DNA of 64,000 nt from a virus. Taxonomy: Duplodnaviria > Heunggongvirae > Uroviricota > Caudoviricetes. Each line of letters opens with the position of its first letter. Position 1 is the stretch's first letter. Below are positions 24,672 to 49,668 of this stretch, in pieces. The notes under the pieces are model-generated. The model was given only the letters and a program-made list of their open reading frames with translations, ran no database searches and was not told where the DNA came from. Both the position numbers and the translations under genes were made by a program. The stretch covers positions 1 to 64,000 of IMG/VR virus record IMGVR_UViG_3300015214_000028; one strand, written 5' to 3'.

Positions 24672-25183
24672 AAACATTCCTTGTAGCAGACACGCACTTT
24701 GGTCACCAAGGTGTTTGTAGGTTTCTTAGAGAGGACGGCTCCAAGCTTCGTCCATGGGATAACTATGCAGATATGGATCGGGAGCTTGTTGCTAGATGGA
24801 ACGCTAAAGTAGGGCCTAAAGATAAGGTATATCACCTGGGCGATGTTCTTATAAACCGTAGGGCTTTTGGTGTTTTGAATGAGCTTAATGGTGATAAGGT
24901 ACTAATACGTGGTAACCATGACATCTTTAAAGACGCCGAGTATACTCCATTCTTTAGGTCTATACGTGGGTCTCATGTGTTAAATAACATGTTGTTAACT
25001 CATATACCTGTTCACCCAGACAGTATGGGCAGGTTTACAGTTAATCTTCATGGGCACTTGCACTATCGTAGTGTTATGCTAGGAGACACGCCCGACCCTA
25101 GGTACCTATGTCTATCAGTGGAGCATACTGATTATGCTCCAATAGATTTTAACGAAGTACTTTCTAGAGTAGCTCAGCGGTAG
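24668..25183 (+). CDS. calcineurin-like metallophosphoesterase
   Basis: Motifs ADTHFGHQG, GDVLINR, IRGNHD, GHLHYR. The 3' end overlaps tRNA-Asn. Confidence 0.6.
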   Translation: MKTFLVADTHFGHQGVCRFLREDGSKLRPWDNYADMDRELVARWNAKVGPKDKVYHLGDVLINRRAFGVLNELNGDKVLIRGNHDIFKDAEYTPFFRSIRGSHVLNNMLLTHIPVHPDSMGRFTVNLHGHLHYRSVMLGDTPDPRYLCLSVEHTDYAPIDFNEVLSRVAQR

Positions 25184-25237
25184 AGCAGTTGGCTGTTACC
25201 CAATTGGTCCTAGGTTCGATACCTAGCTCTAGAGCCA
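25163..25237 (+). tRNA. tRNA-Asn(GTT)
   Basis: Acceptor TCTAGAG/CTCTAGA; D arm AGCTCAGCGGTAGAGCA; anticodon loop CTGTTAC; T loop TTCGATA; encoded CCA. Confidence 0.75.
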
Positions 25238-25312
25238 GGGGGATTAGTGATAATGGGAGCACAGGGGTTTTGCATACCTTTAGTGGGAGTTCAATTCTCC
25301 CATCCTCCACCA
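25238..25312 (+). tRNA. tRNA-Ala(TGC)
   Basis: G3:U70 alanine identity pair; anticodon loop TTTGCAT; T arm GGGAG-TTCAATT-CTCCC; encoded CCA. Confidence 0.65.
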
Positions 25313-25320
25313 AGTTTTAA

Positions 25321-25395
25321 GCACGATTCGTCTATCGGTTAGGACTCAAGGTTTTCATCCTTGCAAGAGGGGTTCGACTCCCCTATCGTGTGCCA
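25321..25395 (+). tRNA. tRNA-Glu(TTC)
   Basis: Anticodon stem CAAGG/CCTTG with loop TTTTCAT; T arm AGGGG-TTCGACT-CCCCT; encoded CCA. Confidence 0.7.
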
Positions 25396-25459
25396 ATTTT
25401 AGTTTTAGGATAGATACAGCAAATTTTACTTATATGGAAGTAACCAAAACTATCCTGTC

Positions 25460-25488
25460 TTGATTTTGTTTGATTAGTGCTGTATAAT
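25460..25488 (+). promoter_or_regulatory. sigma70 promoter TTGATT-N17-TATAAT ahead of the tRNA-Gly/Ile pair
   Basis: Read directly. Confidence 0.6.
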
Positions 25489-25500
25489 GTTTATATCGGA

Positions 25501-25569
25501 TGGGGAATCGCCAAGATGGTTAAGGCATTGGGTTTTGATCCCGACAGTCGAATCCTTCTTCCCTTGCCA
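25501..25569 (+). ncRNA. tRNA-like leader or degenerate tRNA (acceptor, D arm and a TTG anticodon arm recognisable, no T arm)
   Basis: GCC-aagatggttaa-GGC D arm and TTGGG-ttttgat-CCCGA anticodon-like arm ending in TTGCCA, but the 3' part has no foldable T stem. Confidence 0.3.
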
Positions 25570-25578
25570 AAATATTTT

Positions 25579-25654
25579 GCGGATATAGCTCAATTGGTAG
25601 AGCTTCTGCCTTCCAAGCAGACTGTTGTCGGTTCGAGTCCGACTATCCGCTCCA
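25579..25654 (+). tRNA. tRNA-Gly(TCC)
   Basis: GCGGATA/TATCCGC acceptor; loop CTTCCAA; T arm GTCGG-TTCGAGT-CCGAC; encoded CCA. Confidence 0.8.
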
Positions 25655-25661
25655 ACTTTAC

Positions 25662-25736
25662 TCCCGATTAGCTCAGAGGTAGAGCAGTGTTTTGATAAAG
25701 CACTGGTCGATGGTTCGAGTCCATCATCGGGTACCA
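25662..25736 (+). tRNA. tRNA-Ile(GAT)
   Basis: D arm GCTCAGAGGTAGAGC; loop TTGATAA; T arm GATGG-TTCGAGT-CCATC; encoded CCA. The 1:72 pair is T:T. Confidence 0.7.
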
Positions 25737-26075
25737 AATTTAGAGTATACTACCCCAACGGATGGAAAGGAACTACACCTCCCCTTCTTAGTAGGGAAAA
25801 CTCTAAATCTTCTGGGGTCTTGGCCAGACTTTAGAATAATCGACTGTGCGATGAGAGGCTTTAATCTCTCGGGGTACGGCAGTACAGGAACCGTAACCTG
25901 CTATAATAATGATTCCTTTCACTTTTAGGAGCTTATTACTAAGTCTCCTTTTTCAAGATAACTAGACGGACTGTGCTGCCCATAGCGGCACGTGTTAACA
26001 AGTTCGGTGGCGTCTGGCAACCTGCAAAAACTGTATATGCCAGTATACAGGAATGTATCTAGTTGTCTTGAAAAA

Positions 26076-26167
26076 GGAGAGATCCCATAATCGGTATTGG
26101 AGCGGATTGCTAATCCGTCGGCCTGCTAAAAACAGACTTGTGGGTTCGAGTCCCACTCTCTCCACCA
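26076..26167 (+). tRNA. tRNA-Ser(GCT), type II with a long variable arm
   Basis: GGAGAGA/TCTCTCC acceptor; loop TTGCTAA; T arm GTGGG-TTCGAGT-CCCAC; encoded CCA. Confidence 0.7.
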
Positions 26168-26172
26168 TAATT

Positions 26173-43193: not shown

Positions 43194-44050
43194 AGGAACT
43201 TCTAGATAAAAAAGGAATTCCGTATTCCTACCAAGGCAAGGATATTGTAGTTAGGTGTCTAAATCCAGAGCACCCGGACCGAAATCCTTCACTAAGAATC
43301 GATAAAGTAACGGGTCTAGGCCATTGTTTTTCTTGCGGGTTTAAATTAAATCTCTTCAGGTATTTTGCAGAGCCAGCTAATTCTGTAAAAGCTAAAGTTG
43401 CTTTAGTAAAAGAGAAGATTACTACAATTTACAGCGATGTATACGGGCTAGAGGTTCCCAAAGGTGCTCAGCCCTATCCACGAGAGTTCAGAGATATTCC
43501 AGTAGAGGTTCTTAGAAAGTTTGGGGCGTTTAAGCACAAAGATTACCAAGATCGTATTGTATTCCCCCTTCGAGATATTCAGGGCAAAATTCGCGCATTC
43601 GTGGCTCGAACCGAGCCACATTCGCGCGACTTGCCTAGGTATAAAATCTCTCCACCCGGGGCTAGCCTACCCTTATTTCCTGAAAAGCTAAACGAGAAAA
43701 ACTCTACTTTGTTCTTAGTAGAGGGGCCTTTTGATATGCTTAATTTATATGCTAAAGGCATTCATAATGTAGCAGCTATGCTAGGAACGCAAGGGTTAGG
43801 CTCCCTTAAACAGGGGTTAAGAAAAGATAAAGTTCATTTATTAAAACTTCAAGGTGTTAGTCGTCTAGTATTACTTATGGACGGCGACGAGGCGGGTCGT
43901 AAAGCTGCCGAAATATTGGAACCAATGTTGAAAGCTGCCGACTTTGAAGTAATAAGCGTTGACTTAGCTGAGGGAGACGACCCCGGAAGTCTAGATCAAG
44001 ACACAGTTAACCAATTAATTAAATTCTATGACGAAAATTGCAGTAATTGA
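43187..44050 (+). CDS. DnaG-like primase (zinc-binding domain + TOPRIM)
   Basis: CLNPEHPDRNPSLRID...CFSCG zinc ribbon; LVEGPFDMLNLY ... LMDGDEAGRKAA (TOPRIM). Confidence 0.7.
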   Translation: MVEELLDKKGIPYSYQGKDIVVRCLNPEHPDRNPSLRIDKVTGLGHCFSCGFKLNLFRYFAEPANSVKAKVALVKEKITTIYSDVYGLEVPKGAQPYPREFRDIPVEVLRKFGAFKHKDYQDRIVFPLRDIQGKIRAFVARTEPHSRDLPRYKISPPGASLPLFPEKLNEKNSTLFLVEGPFDMLNLYAKGIHNVAAMLGTQGLGSLKQGLRKDKVHLLKLQGVSRLVLLMDGDEAGRKAAEILEPMLKAADFEVISVDLAEGDDPGSLDQDTVNQLIKFYDENCSN

Positions 44051-45560
44051 TAAGTGCCCAAATAACGTAGACTATTCAAAGTACTTTAACTTTGAATTTG
44101 AATATTATCCACTTTCTAGTAAAAAACTAACAAAGGTATTGAAGAAAGATGTTGATATTAATATTGATATTGCTGCCTATGATTATGTTATCCTAGTTGG
44201 CTCCGAAGCAGTAAAGTATTACACTACTCACACCAATGTAACAGACCATCAAGGCACTCTAGTTGATGATAAGTTTATCCCTATGATTACACCTGGGATG
44301 CTGCACTTTAAACCTGAGGCTCGTCCAGCATTCGAACGCTCTCTAGAGTTACTGCATAAAATTGTAGCGGGAGAGCGCATGGAGGTTGTAGGGGACTTTA
44401 AATGGACGGAAGATTATGATACAGCTAGGTCCCTTCTTCTACAGCTTTTGGAAGATGTTAAGGAAACAGGACTGCTAGCGATCGACACTGAAACTACAGC
44501 GCTGTATCCTCGCGATGGGTATGTTCTAGGCGTTTCTCTAGCGGCCAAAGTAGAGAAGGGTATCTATGTACATGCTGATACTCTTGATGATGAAAACTTA
44601 GCTATTATTCAGCAAGCTATTGATATTAGCACAGAAATTTATCATAATGCTAAGTTCGATAGAAAGATGATTAAATACCATCTTGGGCTTAATCTAAAGG
44701 ATAAGTATGAAGATACCATTCTTTTGCATTATCTTCTAGACGAGACTCAAGGAACACATGGCCTTAAGCAACTAGCACTAAAATACACTAAACTAGGTGA
44801 CTATGATAGGGGACTAGACGAATTCAAAAAGTCATACTGTCGCCAGCACAAAATTAAGGAAGAGGATTTCAATTATGGAATGATTCCATTTGAAATCCTG
44901 GGGGAGTATGCTGCTAAAGATGCTGCCGCCACTCTGGAGATTTACCACCTGTTTAGGCCTAAAGTTTCCCAGAATGCAAGGCTAGAAAAGGTATATCAAG
45001 AACTAATTCTACCTGCGTCCTCTGCCCTAGAAAAAGTAGAAGACTTTGGTATTCCCGTATCTAAGGACAGATTAGAGTTTGCTAATAAAACTCTAACTGA
45101 GGCTATTCAGGAGGCTTCCGATGTATTTTACAACTCGGAGGAAGTTAAGCGCTTTGAGGAAATTCAGGAGAAACCTTTCAATCCTAATTCTGTACAACAA
45201 CTTAGGGAATTTCTTTTTACTTATCTAGGATTAAATCCTTTAAATAAAAAGACTAGTACTGGTGCTCAATCAACCGATGCAGAAGTTCTAGAAGATCTAG
45301 AAGACCAACACGAACTAGTTCGTCAAATTATTAAAATTCGTAAACTAGGTAAACTAAAAAATACCTATGTAGATAAGTTACTTTACGAGATTGATAGGGA
45401 CGGCAGAATTCGTACGGGCTTTAATCTTATTAGTACTACTTCAGGTAGGCTATCTAGCTCTGGTAAGTTCAATGCTCAACAAATTCCTAGGGATGACCCA
45501 CGCATTAAAGGTTCAATCGTTGCACCCCCGGGTTACAAAATTGTATCTCAGGATTGGTAA
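44028..45560 (+). CDS. DNA polymerase I (family A), N-terminal fragment: 3'-5' exonuclease domain through the first Asp of motif A
   Basis: Exo motifs (LAIDTETTALY); RKLGKLKNTYVDKL; TSGRLSSSGKFNAQQIPRDDPRIKGSIVAPPGYKIVSQDW aligns to E. coli Pol I ...IRQAFIAPEDYVIVSADY then stops. Confidence 0.8.
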   Translation: MTKIAVIDKCPNNVDYSKYFNFEFEYYPLSSKKLTKVLKKDVDINIDIAAYDYVILVGSEAVKYYTTHTNVTDHQGTLVDDKFIPMITPGMLHFKPEARPAFERSLELLHKIVAGERMEVVGDFKWTEDYDTARSLLLQLLEDVKETGLLAIDTETTALYPRDGYVLGVSLAAKVEKGIYVHADTLDDENLAIIQQAIDISTEIYHNAKFDRKMIKYHLGLNLKDKYEDTILLHYLLDETQGTHGLKQLALKYTKLGDYDRGLDEFKKSYCRQHKIKEEDFNYGMIPFEILGEYAAKDAAATLEIYHLFRPKVSQNARLEKVYQELILPASSALEKVEDFGIPVSKDRLEFANKTLTEAIQEASDVFYNSEEVKRFEEIQEKPFNPNSVQQLREFLFTYLGLNPLNKKTSTGAQSTDAEVLEDLEDQHELVRQIIKIRKLGKLKNTYVDKLLYEIDRDGRIRTGFNLISTTSGRLSSSGKFNAQQIPRDDPRIKGSIVAPPGYKIVSQDW

Positions 45561-46740
45561 CAAGTCCCCTTCAGCAGTAATGTTGAAGTAAACACCCCTC
45601 TAACTGCTGGAATATCATTAGAGCCTTCAAGCTACAACGCAACTGGAAACGGTAATCGTGATAGCCTAAAAATTGAAGGATTTGACAATCAGCAGCCAAG
45701 CCCCGCATTACAAGGGGAAGGTTCAGAGACTATCCGAAAGGAGTAGAGTATGCAAAATAGCAAGCTCGAAATGGGGGGCAGCCTCTTTACGCTAGCCGAA
45801 ATGGCGCGTAAATGGTTTGTAGAGAATAACGTAGAAGTTCCAAAAACTTCAAAAGAATGGGCATCTAGGTCTGTAAACAGGGGGGAAATCCCCCCGGGCA
45901 CAGCTGTGATGACTTTAAGAAACTCGTATGGTATTACTCCTAGAGTATTTTTAAACATACTAAACGGTAAAGACCCTGAAGTCAATAAGTATAAACAAAA
46001 CCAAATTACTCCCGATAATTCTCAAGAACTAATAGGTTTAGAAATTATTGATACTGAGTACAGAAATGACAATGTGCATAAAATTAGTAGAACTAAATGC
46101 TGTCAATGCGGTTTTGAAGAAACTTTAGACAACGGGACTTTTGGTAGAATGCTAGCCAGTAAAAATAAATATTGCAGGATATGCAGAGGTGCTAGTGGAA
46201 AAGAAAAGCCCCTGTTTATTTTTGATAGGTTTGAAGATTTTATTCCTATCAAACAAACTGCAAATAAAAAAATATTATACAGGTGCATTACTTGTGATAA
46301 TAATATTTTACGTGGCACTGGGTATAGTTTACAAGCAGAATACTTAGTTTGTGAGCATTGTAATCCCAAAATTATTAGTGGGGCTAAACTTGAAACACCT
46401 GAGGGTGTTTTTGATTCTAAAATTGAATACTTAGCCTATCTAAAATTAGTAGAAATTTTACCAGACACTTTTAGTATAGAGCGACAAAAATCCTACGATA
46501 GCCTATTCGGCACTAAAACTAAACATACTGCAGATTTTTATTTACCCGAGTTAGATCTAGTTTTAGAAGTCACTACAAACAGTAATAACCTAGGGGCCAA
46601 GTATTCCAAAACAATGTTATGGAAACTAGGCATATCTAGTAAAGTTAAACTAGCCCTGTCAGTTAAAGAGGTTGAAGATATAGTCCGGCCCTTATTGAAA
46701 AATAGGGGGATAACCGTTAACCACAGCAGAAGTTTATGTA
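45558..46740 (+). mobile_element. ~1.18-kb insertion splitting polA inside motif A (intron or free-standing endonuclease insertion; mechanism unresolved)
   Basis: Pol I homology stops at 45557 and resumes at 46741 in a different frame. The insert carries a Cys-rich endonuclease-like ORF. Confidence 0.6.
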
Positions 46741-46784
46741 GCCTCTGTTCTATCAGGAGACAAGAAACTTCAAGAAGTTTTTAA
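45750..46784 (+). CDS. Cys-rich putative homing endonuclease (344 aa; two CxxC...CxxC zinc ribbons) inside the polA insertion
   Basis: CCQCG...CRICRG and CITCDNN...CEHCNP; C-terminal DFYLPELDLVLEVT (possible nuclease core). Same frame as the polA N-fragment; its 3' end overlaps the start of the C-fragment. Confidence 0.45.
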   Translation: MQNSKLEMGGSLFTLAEMARKWFVENNVEVPKTSKEWASRSVNRGEIPPGTAVMTLRNSYGITPRVFLNILNGKDPEVNKYKQNQITPDNSQELIGLEIIDTEYRNDNVHKISRTKCCQCGFEETLDNGTFGRMLASKNKYCRICRGASGKEKPLFIFDRFEDFIPIKQTANKKILYRCITCDNNILRGTGYSLQAEYLVCEHCNPKIISGAKLETPEGVFDSKIEYLAYLKLVEILPDTFSIERQKSYDSLFGTKTKHTADFYLPELDLVLEVTTNSNNLGAKYSKTMLWKLGISSKVKLALSVKEVEDIVRPLLKNRGITVNHSRSLCSLCSIRRQETSRSF

Positions 46785-47496
46785 GAGCGGAGGCGACCTT
46801 CACTCTACAATTGCAAAGATGGTTTTCAACCTTCCTTGCGAGGCAGATCAAGTAAAAAAGCTGTTTCCAATCCAGAGGCAAGCAGCGAAAGCGATTACAT
46901 TCGGAATCCTATACGGTTCAGGGCCGTCTAAAGTAGCAGAGAGTGTAAACAAAGAAGGGGGTAGCATGACTGTCTCCGAAGCGGAAGAAGTTATTCAGCA
47001 ATACTTTGATACATTCAAGCAACTAAAGAAATGGATTACTAGTACAAAAGCTGTTATTGAGCGCGATGGATTTATTTACACAAGCCTAGGAAGAAAAAGA
47101 CGGTTGGAAAATGTATTTTCCTCAGACCGCGGCATTGCCAGCCACGAAGTCCGTTCCGGACTAAATGCTGCGGTCCAGGCTACCGCTAGTGATATCAATT
47201 TGTTAGCGCTTATTAATGCTCAAAAAGAACTAGAAAAACGCAAGCTAGACGCTAATATCTTTATGCTGGTGCATGACTCCATTGTAGCACTAGTAAAAGA
47301 TGAGTGCGTTGAGGAGTACAAGCAAATTCTAAAAACTTGTACTCAACAGGACTACGGATTTAGTATTAGCGGATACCCTATTGGGGTAGATCAGGATGTA
47401 GGGCAGGACTACTCTTTCGGTTCTTTTGACGAGAAATTTGGAGAAGAATATGCTAGATTTATCGAAACTAAAGTGGCCGATTTATCCGCTGCCTGA
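46741..47496 (+). CDS. DNA polymerase I (family A), C-terminal fragment (motifs B and C)
   Basis: [32 protein letters not shown] aligns to [45 protein letters not shown] (motif B) and LVHDS (motif C). The first ATG is at 46819, but homology starts right after the TAG at 46738. Confidence 0.75.
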   Translation, partial: [251 protein letters not shown]

Positions 47497-47956
47497 CTAC
47501 TATCAACTGCAGCAGGACTTAGTAGGGTCATACGTAATTAATTTTAAAAATAATAAATTATATGTAGACCCTACTTCTATAGAGCAGCCCAGCCTTGCTA
47601 GACGAAGGCTGGCGCTCTCTTCTAACCCAGAACAAAAACTATTACGACTAAAAAATCCTTTGAATAGTTATGTTGATATGATTAATTCGCCGCATAAGCG
47701 ATTTATTGATTCTAGTGGTAGAATTATCAGATATCAAAAATCTAGAACAGCTAGACTAGCTTATTATAAAATTTCTTCCTTTGAAGAAACAACAATGGGT
47801 TACGTAATTAATGTCCAAGGACTACATTGTAAGTTTTTTATAAATCGCGCGCCGAAACTTCACGAGAAATATGCCGGAATTCTACACGTGGGTAGAGGCT
47901 TTGTGTTATACAGCTTAGAAGCAGAAAAGCACAAAGATACTTTTAGAAAAATATGA
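47450..47956 (+). CDS. hypothetical protein (168 aa)
   Basis: ATG at 47450 with RBS GGAGAAGA. The track's start at 47426 overlaps the end of polA. Confidence 0.4.
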   Translation: MLDLSKLKWPIYPLPDYYQLQQDLVGSYVINFKNNKLYVDPTSIEQPSLARRRLALSSNPEQKLLRLKNPLNSYVDMINSPHKRFIDSSGRIIRYQKSRTARLAYYKISSFEETTMGYVINVQGLHCKFFINRAPKLHEKYAGILHVGRGFVLYSLEAEKHKDTFRKI

Positions 47957-49668
47957 AAAAAGCAGTAATTAGAAATAGAATTATACTACACACGGATGAT
48001 GAACTAGCTAAGAAAATTATAGATGAACTGACCCATAGGATTCCTCCTAGAAATCATATGGAAACAGTTAAAATTCTAAAATTGTGGAATAGAATCACAC
48101 CTAGTACATATTCAATTCCTTCTGGTCGTATGGACTTAATCCCAGAAGACTATGAAATAATTGATAAACGTGCAGATGTGCCTATCGAGCTTCCAGAGTT
48201 TAAATTTACTTTACGTCCTTCCCAAATGGACGTTTATAACGAAGTTGATTCTAGCTGCATTATTAATGCGGCCCCTTCCTACGGAAAGACTTTTACAGCT
48301 CTAGCTCTGCTCAGCAAACTAAAACAAAAAACTTTAGTAATAACGCATACAACAGCGTTAAGAGATCAGTGGGCGAGGGAGGTTGAGAAAGTTTATGGGT
48401 TTAGTCCTGGAATTATTGGTAGTGGTAGATTTGATATTGTTCCTGACATTGTTATTGCGAACACACAAACTCTAGTTAAAAAGCTTCCTGAGGTTAAGGA
48501 TAAGTTTGGCGCATTAGTGGTGGATGAGTGTTTAGACTACGAAGTAAGCATTGACACCTCTGAAGGACCTATGAAACTGGGGGTTATCGTAAACAATAAA
48601 TTAGCTGTTAAAGTGCGTAGTTTTGATTTAGAAACAGGTAAAGAAGTTTTTAAACCAGTAGTAAACTGGTATAGGAACCCAGAAACAAACTGTTTAAAAA
48701 TAAAAACAAGTATTAGCACCTTAAAGGCCACCAGTAATCATTCTATATATGTAGAAAAAAATGGTGAAATAGTTAAGTTACGGGCAGACGAATTAAAGGT
48801 AGGGGATAATTTGGTTTTGTCGCTTTCTACGCATAACAATATTGAGGTTACCCCAATCAAATCTATTGAACCTAGCACTTTAACTGGCAATCACAGATAT
48901 AATATTGAAGTAGCTGATACGCATACATACTATGCTAATAGTATTCTTGTAGCTAACTGCCATCATTCCCCTTCTTCTACCTTCTCAGAGATAGTTGATA
49001 AGATGGAATCCAAATATAAAATTGGATTGTCTGGCACTATAGTAAGAAAAGACGGACAACATGTTGTTCTTCCAGGCTACTTTAGTAGTAAATTAATTCA
49101 ACCTCCGGCGGAGAACGCAGCTACTCCCGTAATATTTACAGTAGCTTCTAAGATTCCGTTTCCTTCTGGAAGTACTTGGGGAGAGCAGGTTACTAACTTA
49201 GAATGCTATACTCCTGAATACCAGCAGCTAGTAGTAACTCTAGCCGACATGGCGGCAGATGCCGGACATAAAGTGTTAGTTGTAGCCTCTAGGGTTGAAT
49301 TTTTGGAGAAAGCCCCCGGCATGTGTAAGAATAGTGCTATTTCAATTACGGGCTCTGTAAAGGACTTAGAAGAGCGCAACGATCTTCTAGCTTCCTTATC
49401 TAGTAGTAATTCAATTCTTTTTGGAACCATGTCTATTTTTAGCGAAGGCATTTCACAAAACGATCTAAGCTGTTTAATTTTAGCCACCCCTATTAATAAC
49501 GATTCTTTGCTAGAACAATTAATTGGGCGGGTAGTTCGTATTAAAGAAGGAAAGAAGCAGCCAGTAGTTTTTGATATTCATTTGGATGGTGCCATGACTA
49601 AAAGACAAGCAAGCAGTAGAATGGGCTTCTATATGCGAAAAGGCTTTGAAATAAAAAAATTGACTTGA
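47953..49668 (+). CDS. DExH-box (superfamily 2) helicase containing a mini-intein
   Basis: Motif I AAPSYGKTF. Motif II is DE-[intein]-CHH, which becomes DECHH after splicing. Helicase C-terminal motifs (ILFGTMS, QLIGRVVR). Confidence 0.7.
   Translation: MKKAVIRNRIILHTDDELAKKIIDELTHRIPPRNHMETVKILKLWNRITPSTYSIPSGRMDLIPEDYEIIDKRADVPIELPEFKFTLRPSQMDVYNEVDSSCIINAAPSYGKTFTALALLSKLKQKTLVITHTTALRDQWAREVEKVYGFSPGIIGSGRFDIVPDIVIANTQTLVKKLPEVKDKFGALVVDECLDYEVSIDTSEGPMKLGVIVNNKLAVKVRSFDLETGKEVFKPVVNWYRNPETNCLKIKTSISTLKATSNHSIYVEKNGEIVKLRADELKVGDNLVLSLSTHNNIEVTPIKSIEPSTLTGNHRYNIEVADTHTYYANSILVANCHHSPSSTFSEIVDKMESKYKIGLSGTIVRKDGQHVVLPGYFSSKLIQPPAENAATPVIFTVASKIPFPSGSTWGEQVTNLECYTPEYQQLVVTLADMAADAGHKVLVVASRVEFLEKAPGMCKNSAISITGSVKDLEERNDLLASLSSSNSILFGTMSIFSEGISQNDLSCLILATPINNDSLLEQLIGRVVRIKEGKKQPVVFDIHLDGAMTKRQASSRMGFYMRKGFEIKKLT
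48529..48957 (+). mobile_element. mini-intein (143 aa, Hint domain) inserted in helicase motif II
   Basis: Begins CLDYEVSIDT (block A) right after VVDE. TxxH block B (LKATSNHSIY). Ends NIEVADTHTYYANSILVAN followed by CHH (blocks F/G, terminal Asn, +1 Cys). Excision restores DECH. Confidence 0.7.

Follow-up and report, generated by a model that had tools for sequence, protein, structure and literature searches.

The IMG/VR virus record IMGVR_UViG_3300015214_000028 (Caudoviricetes) contains, within the gene of a superfamily 2 (SF2) helicase, an in-frame insert which is very probably a self-splicing class 1 mini-intein, derived from an intein with a LAGLIDADG homing endonuclease. We analysed one strand of this record from position 1 to 64,000; this stretch of 64,000 nucleotides (nt) is called the window, and positions are numbered along it unless stated otherwise. 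The insert occupies 48529..48957 and interrupts motif II (Walker B, DExH) of a helicase of the type of phage T5 D10. The exact boundaries, the relationship to known Hint domains, and the occurrence of empty, nuclease-bearing and nuclease-free alleles at the same site are described below, together with other readings of the same data.

Boundaries and identity of the insert

A preliminary description of this DNA, made from the sequence alone, had placed a mini-intein of 143 amino acids (aa) at 48529-48957, starting with a Cys directly after VVDE and ending in ...ILVAN followed by CHH, and had proposed that a 571-aa precursor is spliced into a 428-aa product, precise excision recreating the DECH box. 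Translation of 48529..48957 gives CLDYEVSIDT...THTYYANSILVAN, preceded by ...FGALVVDE and followed by CHHSPSS, in agreement with these ends. The 571-aa precursor is present in the list of open reading frames (ORFs), and excision of the insert in silico leaves 428 aa reading ...VVDECHHSPSS. The nearest intein-free homologue is a natural protein, P0003, itself of 428 aa; its alignment with this product is gapless from residue 1 to residue 428, and 88.8% of the positions are identical. At the DNA level, the alignment of locus L001, which carries the P0003 gene, with the window gene shows one gap of 429 nt, which corresponds exactly to 48529..48957, and the empty site in L001 reads ...ATTATTGACGAG joined directly to TGCCATCATACTCC.... 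The coordinates and length first proposed are thus exact, and such a single 429-nt gap is the strongest confirmation of the predicted splice junctions that a computational analysis can provide.

The preliminary description had also recognised the Hint blocks A, B, F and G, had noted the lack of an endonuclease domain and had suggested a Hint-domain search as a check. Searched on its own, the insert matched PF07591 PT-HINT with 47.9 bits (cut-off 27.7), TIGR01445 intein_Nterm with 28.2 bits (cut-off 24.5) and TIGR01443 intein_Cterm with 27.1 bits (cut-off 15.6), and PF14890 Intein_splicing with 31.5 bits, just below the cut-off of 35.8. As scores against curated models exceed their cut-offs, the resemblance to a Hint domain does not arise by chance. 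All four blocks were located in the insert (Table 1). Neither a scan with domain models nor the alignment with full-length inteins, in which the LAGLIDADG insert of the relatives is replaced by a scar, revealed a nuclease domain in it, whether LAGLIDADG, HNH or of another kind, and the designation as a mini-intein was retained.

Comparisons with known structures gave the same picture. A phmmer search against all PDB sequences returned 28 matches, every one an intein or an intein-like domain, the best being the Mja KlbA intein (E 3e-8). An AlphaFold2 model of the intein, built with 39 homologues, is all-beta with a mean predicted local distance difference test score (pLDDT) of 96.1 and a predicted template modelling score (pTM) of 0.89; its least confident region is the scar (mean pLDDT of 84 for residues 101-110). 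Foldseek found 68 matches to this model in the PDB at E <= 1e-3 (best E 6e-11), of which the best 50 are all Hint-fold proteins, namely inteins, bacterial intein-like domains (BILs) and Hedgehog. PhoCDC21-1, Mvu TFIIB and Mtu RecA gave Foldseek template modelling (TM) scores of 0.84-0.88 and root mean square deviations (rmsd) of 1.8-2.5 Å, with a TM of 0.87 and an rmsd of 1.8 Å for Mtu RecA. When 1.84 billion representative proteins were scanned with phmmer, 943 related Hint domains were detected at E <= 1e-3, but only three reached E <= 1e-30, all of them allelic inteins of D10-like helicases.

The C-terminal Asn143 followed by Cys+1 forms the N-C pair of class 1 inteins. A class 3 intein, which has no nucleophile at position 1 and is marked by a Trp-Cys-Thr triplet at B:12/F:4/G:5, was ruled out, as the insert has Cys1, with Asn at F:4 and Val at G:5. 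A split intein was ruled out by the single uninterrupted ORF of 571 codons. No second intein of the same family was found in the window with a family hidden Markov model run with filters off on all ORFs, read from stop to stop, of 50 aa or more. The G+C content of the intein is 0.34, compared to 0.37 and 0.40 for the flanking exteins and 0.41 for the whole window.

Host helicase, allelic series and selection

The exteins match the Pfam domains ResIII (64.8 bits) and Helicase_C (30.1 bits), as well as DEAD. A megablast search of the gene against a collection of 50,697 phage records gave zero matches, so that the phage has no close cultured relative in this collection and the host protein was identified only through tblastn, which matched 964 of these records, T5 D10 included; the matches inspected are annotated helicases of T5-like phages. 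Along its entire length the protein spliced in silico shares 38% of its residues with T5 D10 (E 4e-101), and the alignment is gapless across the junction (FGALVVDECHHSPSSTF against FGTVIVDEVHHCVATTF), where DECHH faces DEVHH. The order of genes in the window, i.e. DnaB-like helicase, primase, family-A polymerase, a small ORF, the intein-bearing helicase, two small ORFs, Mre11-like and Rad50-like, matches the T5 order D5, D6, D7-8-9, orf, D10, ..., D12, D13. Walker A, DExH, motif III, the arginine finger, two RecA-like domains and the position in the replication module are all present, and helicase activity is predicted. T5 D10 is an SF2 branch-migration helicase, kin to UvsW and XPB (Wong et al. 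2016, PMC5180179). By its sequence and gene context, the host protein is the positional orthologue of T5 D10, a D10/UvsW/XPB-type SF2 helicase, and the source of the window is an uncultured relative of the T5-like phages.

Two PHROG families, phrog_16259 and phrog_9690, both named 'DNA helicase', separately match precursor residues 83-288 and 295-568. The first match takes in the N half and, with it, the N part of the intein, and the second the C half; in some reference phages an intein-bearing helicase may be divided between two genes, in the annotation or in reality. A 64-aa antisense ORF at 48537..48731 was set aside as a mechanical ORF without support.

Homologues of the host protein were collected from a search of 5.8 billion proteins, and the best 120 were classified. 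Seventy-two of them are intein-free proteins of ~423-438 aa with no Hint domain, and eight are proteins of 571-615 aa with mini-inteins of 143-186 aa. The other 40 are longer; 38 of them measure 779-810 aa, and the remaining two, owing to incomplete N-exteins, reach only 661 and 737 aa. The inteins of 39 of these 40 proteins measure 352-367 aa; that of P0021 (784 aa) is outside the measured set, and the intein alignment accordingly covers 47 of the 48 intein-bearing homologues. PF03161 LAGLIDADG is included in the precomputed Pfam list of the longer proteins, and one of the alleles, P0029, carries the JGI label 'superfamily II DNA or RNA helicase/intein/homing endonuclease'. The insertion site is identical in all 48 cases and reads DE-CL(D/E)Y...(S/A/G)N-CH(H/R), where hyphens mark the junctions. 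Between their N- and C-terminal splicing halves the inteins of 352-367 aa contain two LAGLIDADG motifs, ...LGxxLGDGxL... and ...YQDDGS..., and according to the alignment this endonuclease insert of ~210-225 aa is replaced in the window intein by the short scar.

The eight mini-inteins differ in the end-points of their deletions, and one of them, P0023 (186 aa), retains nuclease fragments. The nearest relatives of several are full-length: P0012 is 86.8% identical to P0014, P0023 78.6% to P0017, P0020 77.1% to P0027 and P0071 71.7% to P0038. The window intein is closest to P0002 (91.6%) and next to the full-length P0037 (67.1%). The differing end-points and the full-length nearest relatives imply about seven independent losses of the nuclease, an approximate count read from a neighbour-joining tree of 143 columns. 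Such losses are what is expected late in the homing cycle.

Several comparative observations speak for splicing. Cys1, encoded by 48529..48531, is invariant in the 48 alleles, as is the pair formed by the terminal Asn and Cys+1. Among the 40 aligned alleles C1, T68, H71, N125, H132 and N143 never vary, and in block F the invariant residues are N125, I126, E127, V128, H132 and Y134. In a comparison of the window with its closest relative, L002, the ratio of nonsynonymous to synonymous rates (dN/dS, NG86 method) is 0.13 for the intein and 0.06 and 0.11 for the exteins in this one pair. The intein thus appears to be under purifying selection, and the constraint on the exteins in intein-bearing genomes indicates that the helicase is in use.

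In the 72 intein-free homologues the x of DExH is Met in 45, Cys in 15, Ala in 11 and Phe in one, and it is Val in T5 D10. This position of motif II (48523..48966 in the window, insert included) is unusually free, Met being its commonest residue in intein-free proteins. Cys+1 is found in 48/48 intein-bearing alleles versus 15/72 intein-free ones (Fisher p about 1e-20, with alleles counted as independent). Cys+1 therefore tracks the intein, the pattern expected if splicing, rather than the helicase, needs this residue. We infer from these sequence data that splicing occurs. From what is generally known of SF2 helicases, the unspliced precursor should be catalytically dead, because the insert parts the Asp-Glu that binds Mg2+ and activates water from the His of motif II.

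Mechanism and alternative readings

In the proposed mechanism, the gene would be translated into the 571-aa precursor, within which the Hint domain would fold. Cys1 would undergo an N-to-S acyl shift, resulting in a thioester at the Glu192-Cys193 bond, and Cys+1 would attack this thioester and take over the acyl group, giving a branched intermediate. Cyclisation of Asn143 would then free the 143-aa intein, and an S-to-N shift would form a normal peptide bond, leaving a helicase of 428 aa whose DECHH box is intact. The ancestor would have been an intein of ~360 aa with a LAGLIDADG homing endonuclease, a form still present at the same site in many related phages, and the clean deletion of the nuclease domain in the window would represent a late stage of the homing cycle. 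With its nuclease deleted, the intein would be unable to home by itself any longer, and it would persist because imprecise loss would destroy an important gene.

Some points weigh against this interpretation. The penultimate His (G:6) is missing, the intein having Ala142 and thus VAN instead of the canonical VHN, and position 4 of block F is Asn125 instead of the usual Asp; with these two residues splicing could be slow, conditional or temperature-dependent. In addition, the dN/dS values come from one sequence pair, the Fisher test on Cys+1 ignores phylogenetic non-independence, and the count of nuclease losses is based on only 143 alignment columns. Concerning the two residues, Asp at F:4 helps to activate both nucleophiles in model inteins, the usual residues at this position being Asp, then Cys, then Trp (PMC4031507). 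His G:6 and Asp F:4 were described by Mills et al. as assisting but not obligatory, and splicing was noted in inteins that lack His G:6 (PMC4031507). Kelley et al. reported poor conservation of the penultimate His among mycobacteriophage inteins, one of which spliced better in its native Gly form than as a His revertant (PMC5050341). Class 1 inteins can splice without this His, the lack of which is common in phage inteins (PMC5050341, PMC4031507), and Ala142 is therefore no bar to membership among the inteins. In the present family the penultimate residue is Ser, Ala or Gly in 48/48 alleles and never His, and the Asn at F:4 is invariant. Being found family-wide, and in view of this literature, the non-canonical residues appear to be family traits and not signs of decay, and may affect the rate of splicing.

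A two-part extension of the mini-intein interpretation, which we regard as unlikely, proposes that Asn F:4, the small penultimate residue and the Cys/Cys junctions gate splicing by redox state or temperature, releasing D10 activity at a set point of the infection, and, separately, that the mini-intein still spreads, by recombination or with the help of a nuclease supplied by co-infecting phages that carry full-length relatives. On the second part, the synonymous divergence (pS) between 48529..48957 and L002:8577-9005 is 0.28 for the intein, compared to 0.65 for the N-extein and 0.41 for the C-extein (Fisher p 7e-5). This lower value is a hint of continued spread, and an exchange of the mini-intein could postdate the divergence of the helicase gene. 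Alternatively, the low pS could result from mosaic recombination, other segments of the gene being likewise about 95% identical.

Somewhat less probable still is that the splicing intein has been co-opted as a conditional switch which times helicase activation during infection, either through a redox-sensitive disulfide between Cys1 and Cys+1 or through an Asn cyclisation slowed by Ala142 and Asn125. That both nucleophiles are Cys and that the family strictly keeps its unusual residues at G:6 and F:4 would fit such a role, as would the altered precursor accumulation caused by the penultimate residue in a mycobacteriophage intein (PMC5050341) and the argument that the clustering of inteins in ATPase motifs is functional (PMC4760082). 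However, as 72 of the 120 closest homologues are intein-free, an 89%-identical allele among them, the intein is dispensable for the helicase, and its patchy distribution and the repeated loss of the nuclease fit a selfish homing cycle.

We also considered a decayed, splicing-dead remnant, the helicase gene being then either a pseudogene or functional with the Hint domain permanently inserted. The nuclease domain is indeed gone, the penultimate His is absent and Asn replaces Asp at F:4, but these same non-canonical residues are invariant or family-wide in the 48 alleles, including those with an apparently intact LAGLIDADG domain. The dN/dS of 0.13 for the intein and of 0.06-0.11 for the exteins of the intein-bearing pair also speaks against decay, as do the retention of all catalytic nucleophiles and the fact that Cys+1 is obligatory only where the intein is present. 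Moreover, judging from the structure of SF2 helicases, a lasting insert of 143 aa between the DE and the H of Walker B would hardly be compatible with ATP hydrolysis. This reading was rejected on the selection and conservation data and is in our view very improbable.

BILs typically occur in variable, non-conserved proteins. A BIL or another non-splicing Hint domain such as a pretoxin-HINT, which would cleave instead of ligating, is suggested by the best Pfam match (PF07591 PT-HINT, with PF14890 under its cut-off) and by the BIL and Hedgehog structures among the Foldseek matches, but was rejected as hardly credible, since the insert interrupts an important enzyme, in-frame, within a conserved catalytic motif, ends in Asn followed by Cys+1, passes both TIGRFAM intein models, has intein-free alleles as well as full-length ones bearing a homing endonuclease, and stands outside any toxin or secreted-protein context. 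BILs have been listed as a separate group (PMC4031507). A self-splicing mini-intein remains the interpretation that we prefer.

Neighbouring elements and known systems

The positions of the features are collected in Table 1. Upstream of the helicase gene, a group I intron of 1162 nt (45555..46716) splits the gene of the family-A DNA polymerase inside motif A, the exons being 44028..45554 and 46717..47496; the ORF list accordingly gives the polymerase in two pieces, of 510 and 225 aa. Each end of the intron is matched by Rfam RF00028, at 45549-45779 (39.2 bits, E 4e-8) and 46553-46707 (35.2 bits, E 6e-7), in both cases below the gathering score of 50. The 5' exon ends with U and the intron with G, as expected of a group I intron, and the joined exons form an uninterrupted ORF of 768 aa which aligns without gaps with the T5 polymerase through motif A (KIVSQD-LTTAEVYV, the hyphen marking the exon junction, against RVIAWDLTTAEVYY). 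The 344-aa ORF of the intron has no significant Pfam or PHROG match and is presumably a homing endonuclease. In the polymerase gap of L002, an 85%-identical relative, there is an extra ORF of 261 aa (L002:6140-6925) with a faint LAGLIDADG_3 match, which is lacking in the window and may represent another mobile element inserted at this hotspot. Three of the tRNA genes further upstream are unusually long, with 89-98 nt (26076-26164, 30415-30508 and 30517-30614).

Table 1. Features of the predicted intein-bearing helicase gene and other elements of the window
Feature	Position	Strand	Description	Basis
Cluster of 14 tRNA genes	25163..33168	+	Typical of T5-like phages	
Cys-rich ORF inside intron	45750..46784	+	344 aa; also in relatives L002 and L003	
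Precursor gene	47953..49668	+	571-aa SF2 (DExH) helicase with putative intein	ORF list, Pfam, tblastn
N-extein	47953..48528	+	192 aa; last residues are VVDE of motif II	
Walker A, APSYGKT	48271..48291	+	In N-extein	
VVDE	48517..48528	+	Start of motif II, end of N-extein	
Predicted class 1 mini-intein	48529..48957	+	143 aa, Cys1 to Asn143	Hint/intein models, PDB matches, AlphaFold2, empty-allele gap
Block A, C1-L-D-Y-E-V-S-I-D-T	48529..48558	+	Cys1 is the putative first nucleophile; C1, L2 and Y4 invariant (40 aligned alleles)	
Block B, T68-S-N-H71 (TxxH)	48730..48741	+	T68, N70 and H71 invariant (40 aligned alleles)	
Deletion scar, STHNNIEV	48826..48849	+	Site of the LAGLIDADG insert (~210-225 aa) in full-length relatives	Alignment of mini- and full-length inteins
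Block F, R123-Y-N125-I-E-V-A-D-T-H132-T-Y-Y-A-N137	48895..48939	+	Asn at F:4, His at F:13	
Block G, S138-I-L-V-A142-N143	48940..48957	+	Terminal Asn; penultimate Ala, non-canonical	
Cys+1-His-His	48958..48966	+	Putative C-extein nucleophile and remainder of motif II (DE-CHH)	
C-extein	48958..49668	+	236 aa and stop codon; contains Helicase_C domain	
Motif III, SGT	49030..49038	+	In C-extein	
Motif VI arginine finger, QLIGRVVR	49516..49539	+	In C-extein	

At one site of one host gene, environmental phages display the whole homing cycle, with empty alleles, nuclease-bearing alleles and about seven apparently independent nuclease losses. In annotations, the proper entry for this gene is a single helicase with an intein, rather than an oversized or fused protein. 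With 143 aa the element would be a very small natural cis-splicing intein with native Cys/Cys junctions and with non-canonical catalytic residues that are conserved in its family. Its practical value is modest; it could serve intein engineering as a scaffold or for mechanistic comparison, and it opens no new question.

A tblastn search of the intein against the 50,697 phage records gave four weak matches (26-32% identity), and no record was found to carry this intein in a D10-like gene; of the four, two fall in annotated genes, for an RNA ligase and a DNA polymerase, and two in records without annotation. In the literature, the coverage of which was partial and gives no proof of absence, we came across neither a paper on an intein in D10-like helicases nor an account of this insertion site in T5 D10, UvsW or T5-like helicases. 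T5 D10 itself has the same SF2 motifs as the window helicase and the same position after the DNA polymerase gene, but it is without an intein and its motif II reads DEVHH.

The class 1 mini-inteins of solved structure, i.e. the splicing domain of Mtu RecA, Ssp/Npu DnaB, Spl DnaX, Mvu/Mja TFIIB and Pho/Pab CDC21-1, share the Hint fold with the window intein (TM 0.82-0.88, rmsd 1.8-2.7 Å) and, like it, have Cys1, a TxxH in block B, a His in block F, a terminal Asn and a +1 nucleophile. They measure ~137-170 aa, and all interrupt a replication or repair protein at a motif for ATP binding or catalysis, as here. Sequence identity to the window intein is however just 16-26%, the host and the site differ, the window intein being located between DE and xH of a D10/UvsW/XPB-type SF2 helicase, and Ala and Asn occupy the penultimate and F:4 positions where the solved mini-inteins have His and Asp. 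The mycobacteriophage inteins without a penultimate His, such as that of the recombination directionality factor (RDF) gp51 of Bethlehem (Kelley et al. 2016, PMC5050341), are likewise phage-borne class 1 inteins in proteins of DNA metabolism. They have Gly or Ser at the penultimate position and were shown to splice, whereas the window intein has Ala and its splicing is predicted. They also reside in other host proteins and phage lineages and have no close sequence kinship to the window intein, and the RDF intein has an endonuclease.

Close counterparts are the allelic LAGLIDADG inteins in D10-like helicases of uncultured phages (P0037, P0007 and P0005 among others), which have the same insertion point (DE-C...N-CHH) and the same CLDY start as the window intein, a splicing domain 54-67% identical to it, and, also in common with it, an S/A/G-N end and the invariant Asn at F:4. 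These alleles keep the two-motif endonuclease of ~210-225 aa, all of which the window intein has lost. It is a classic pattern that inteins occupy ATPase motifs in proteins of replication and repair (PMC4760082), and the present one is a genuine but ordinary case of a well-known selfish element, at an insertion site which may be new.

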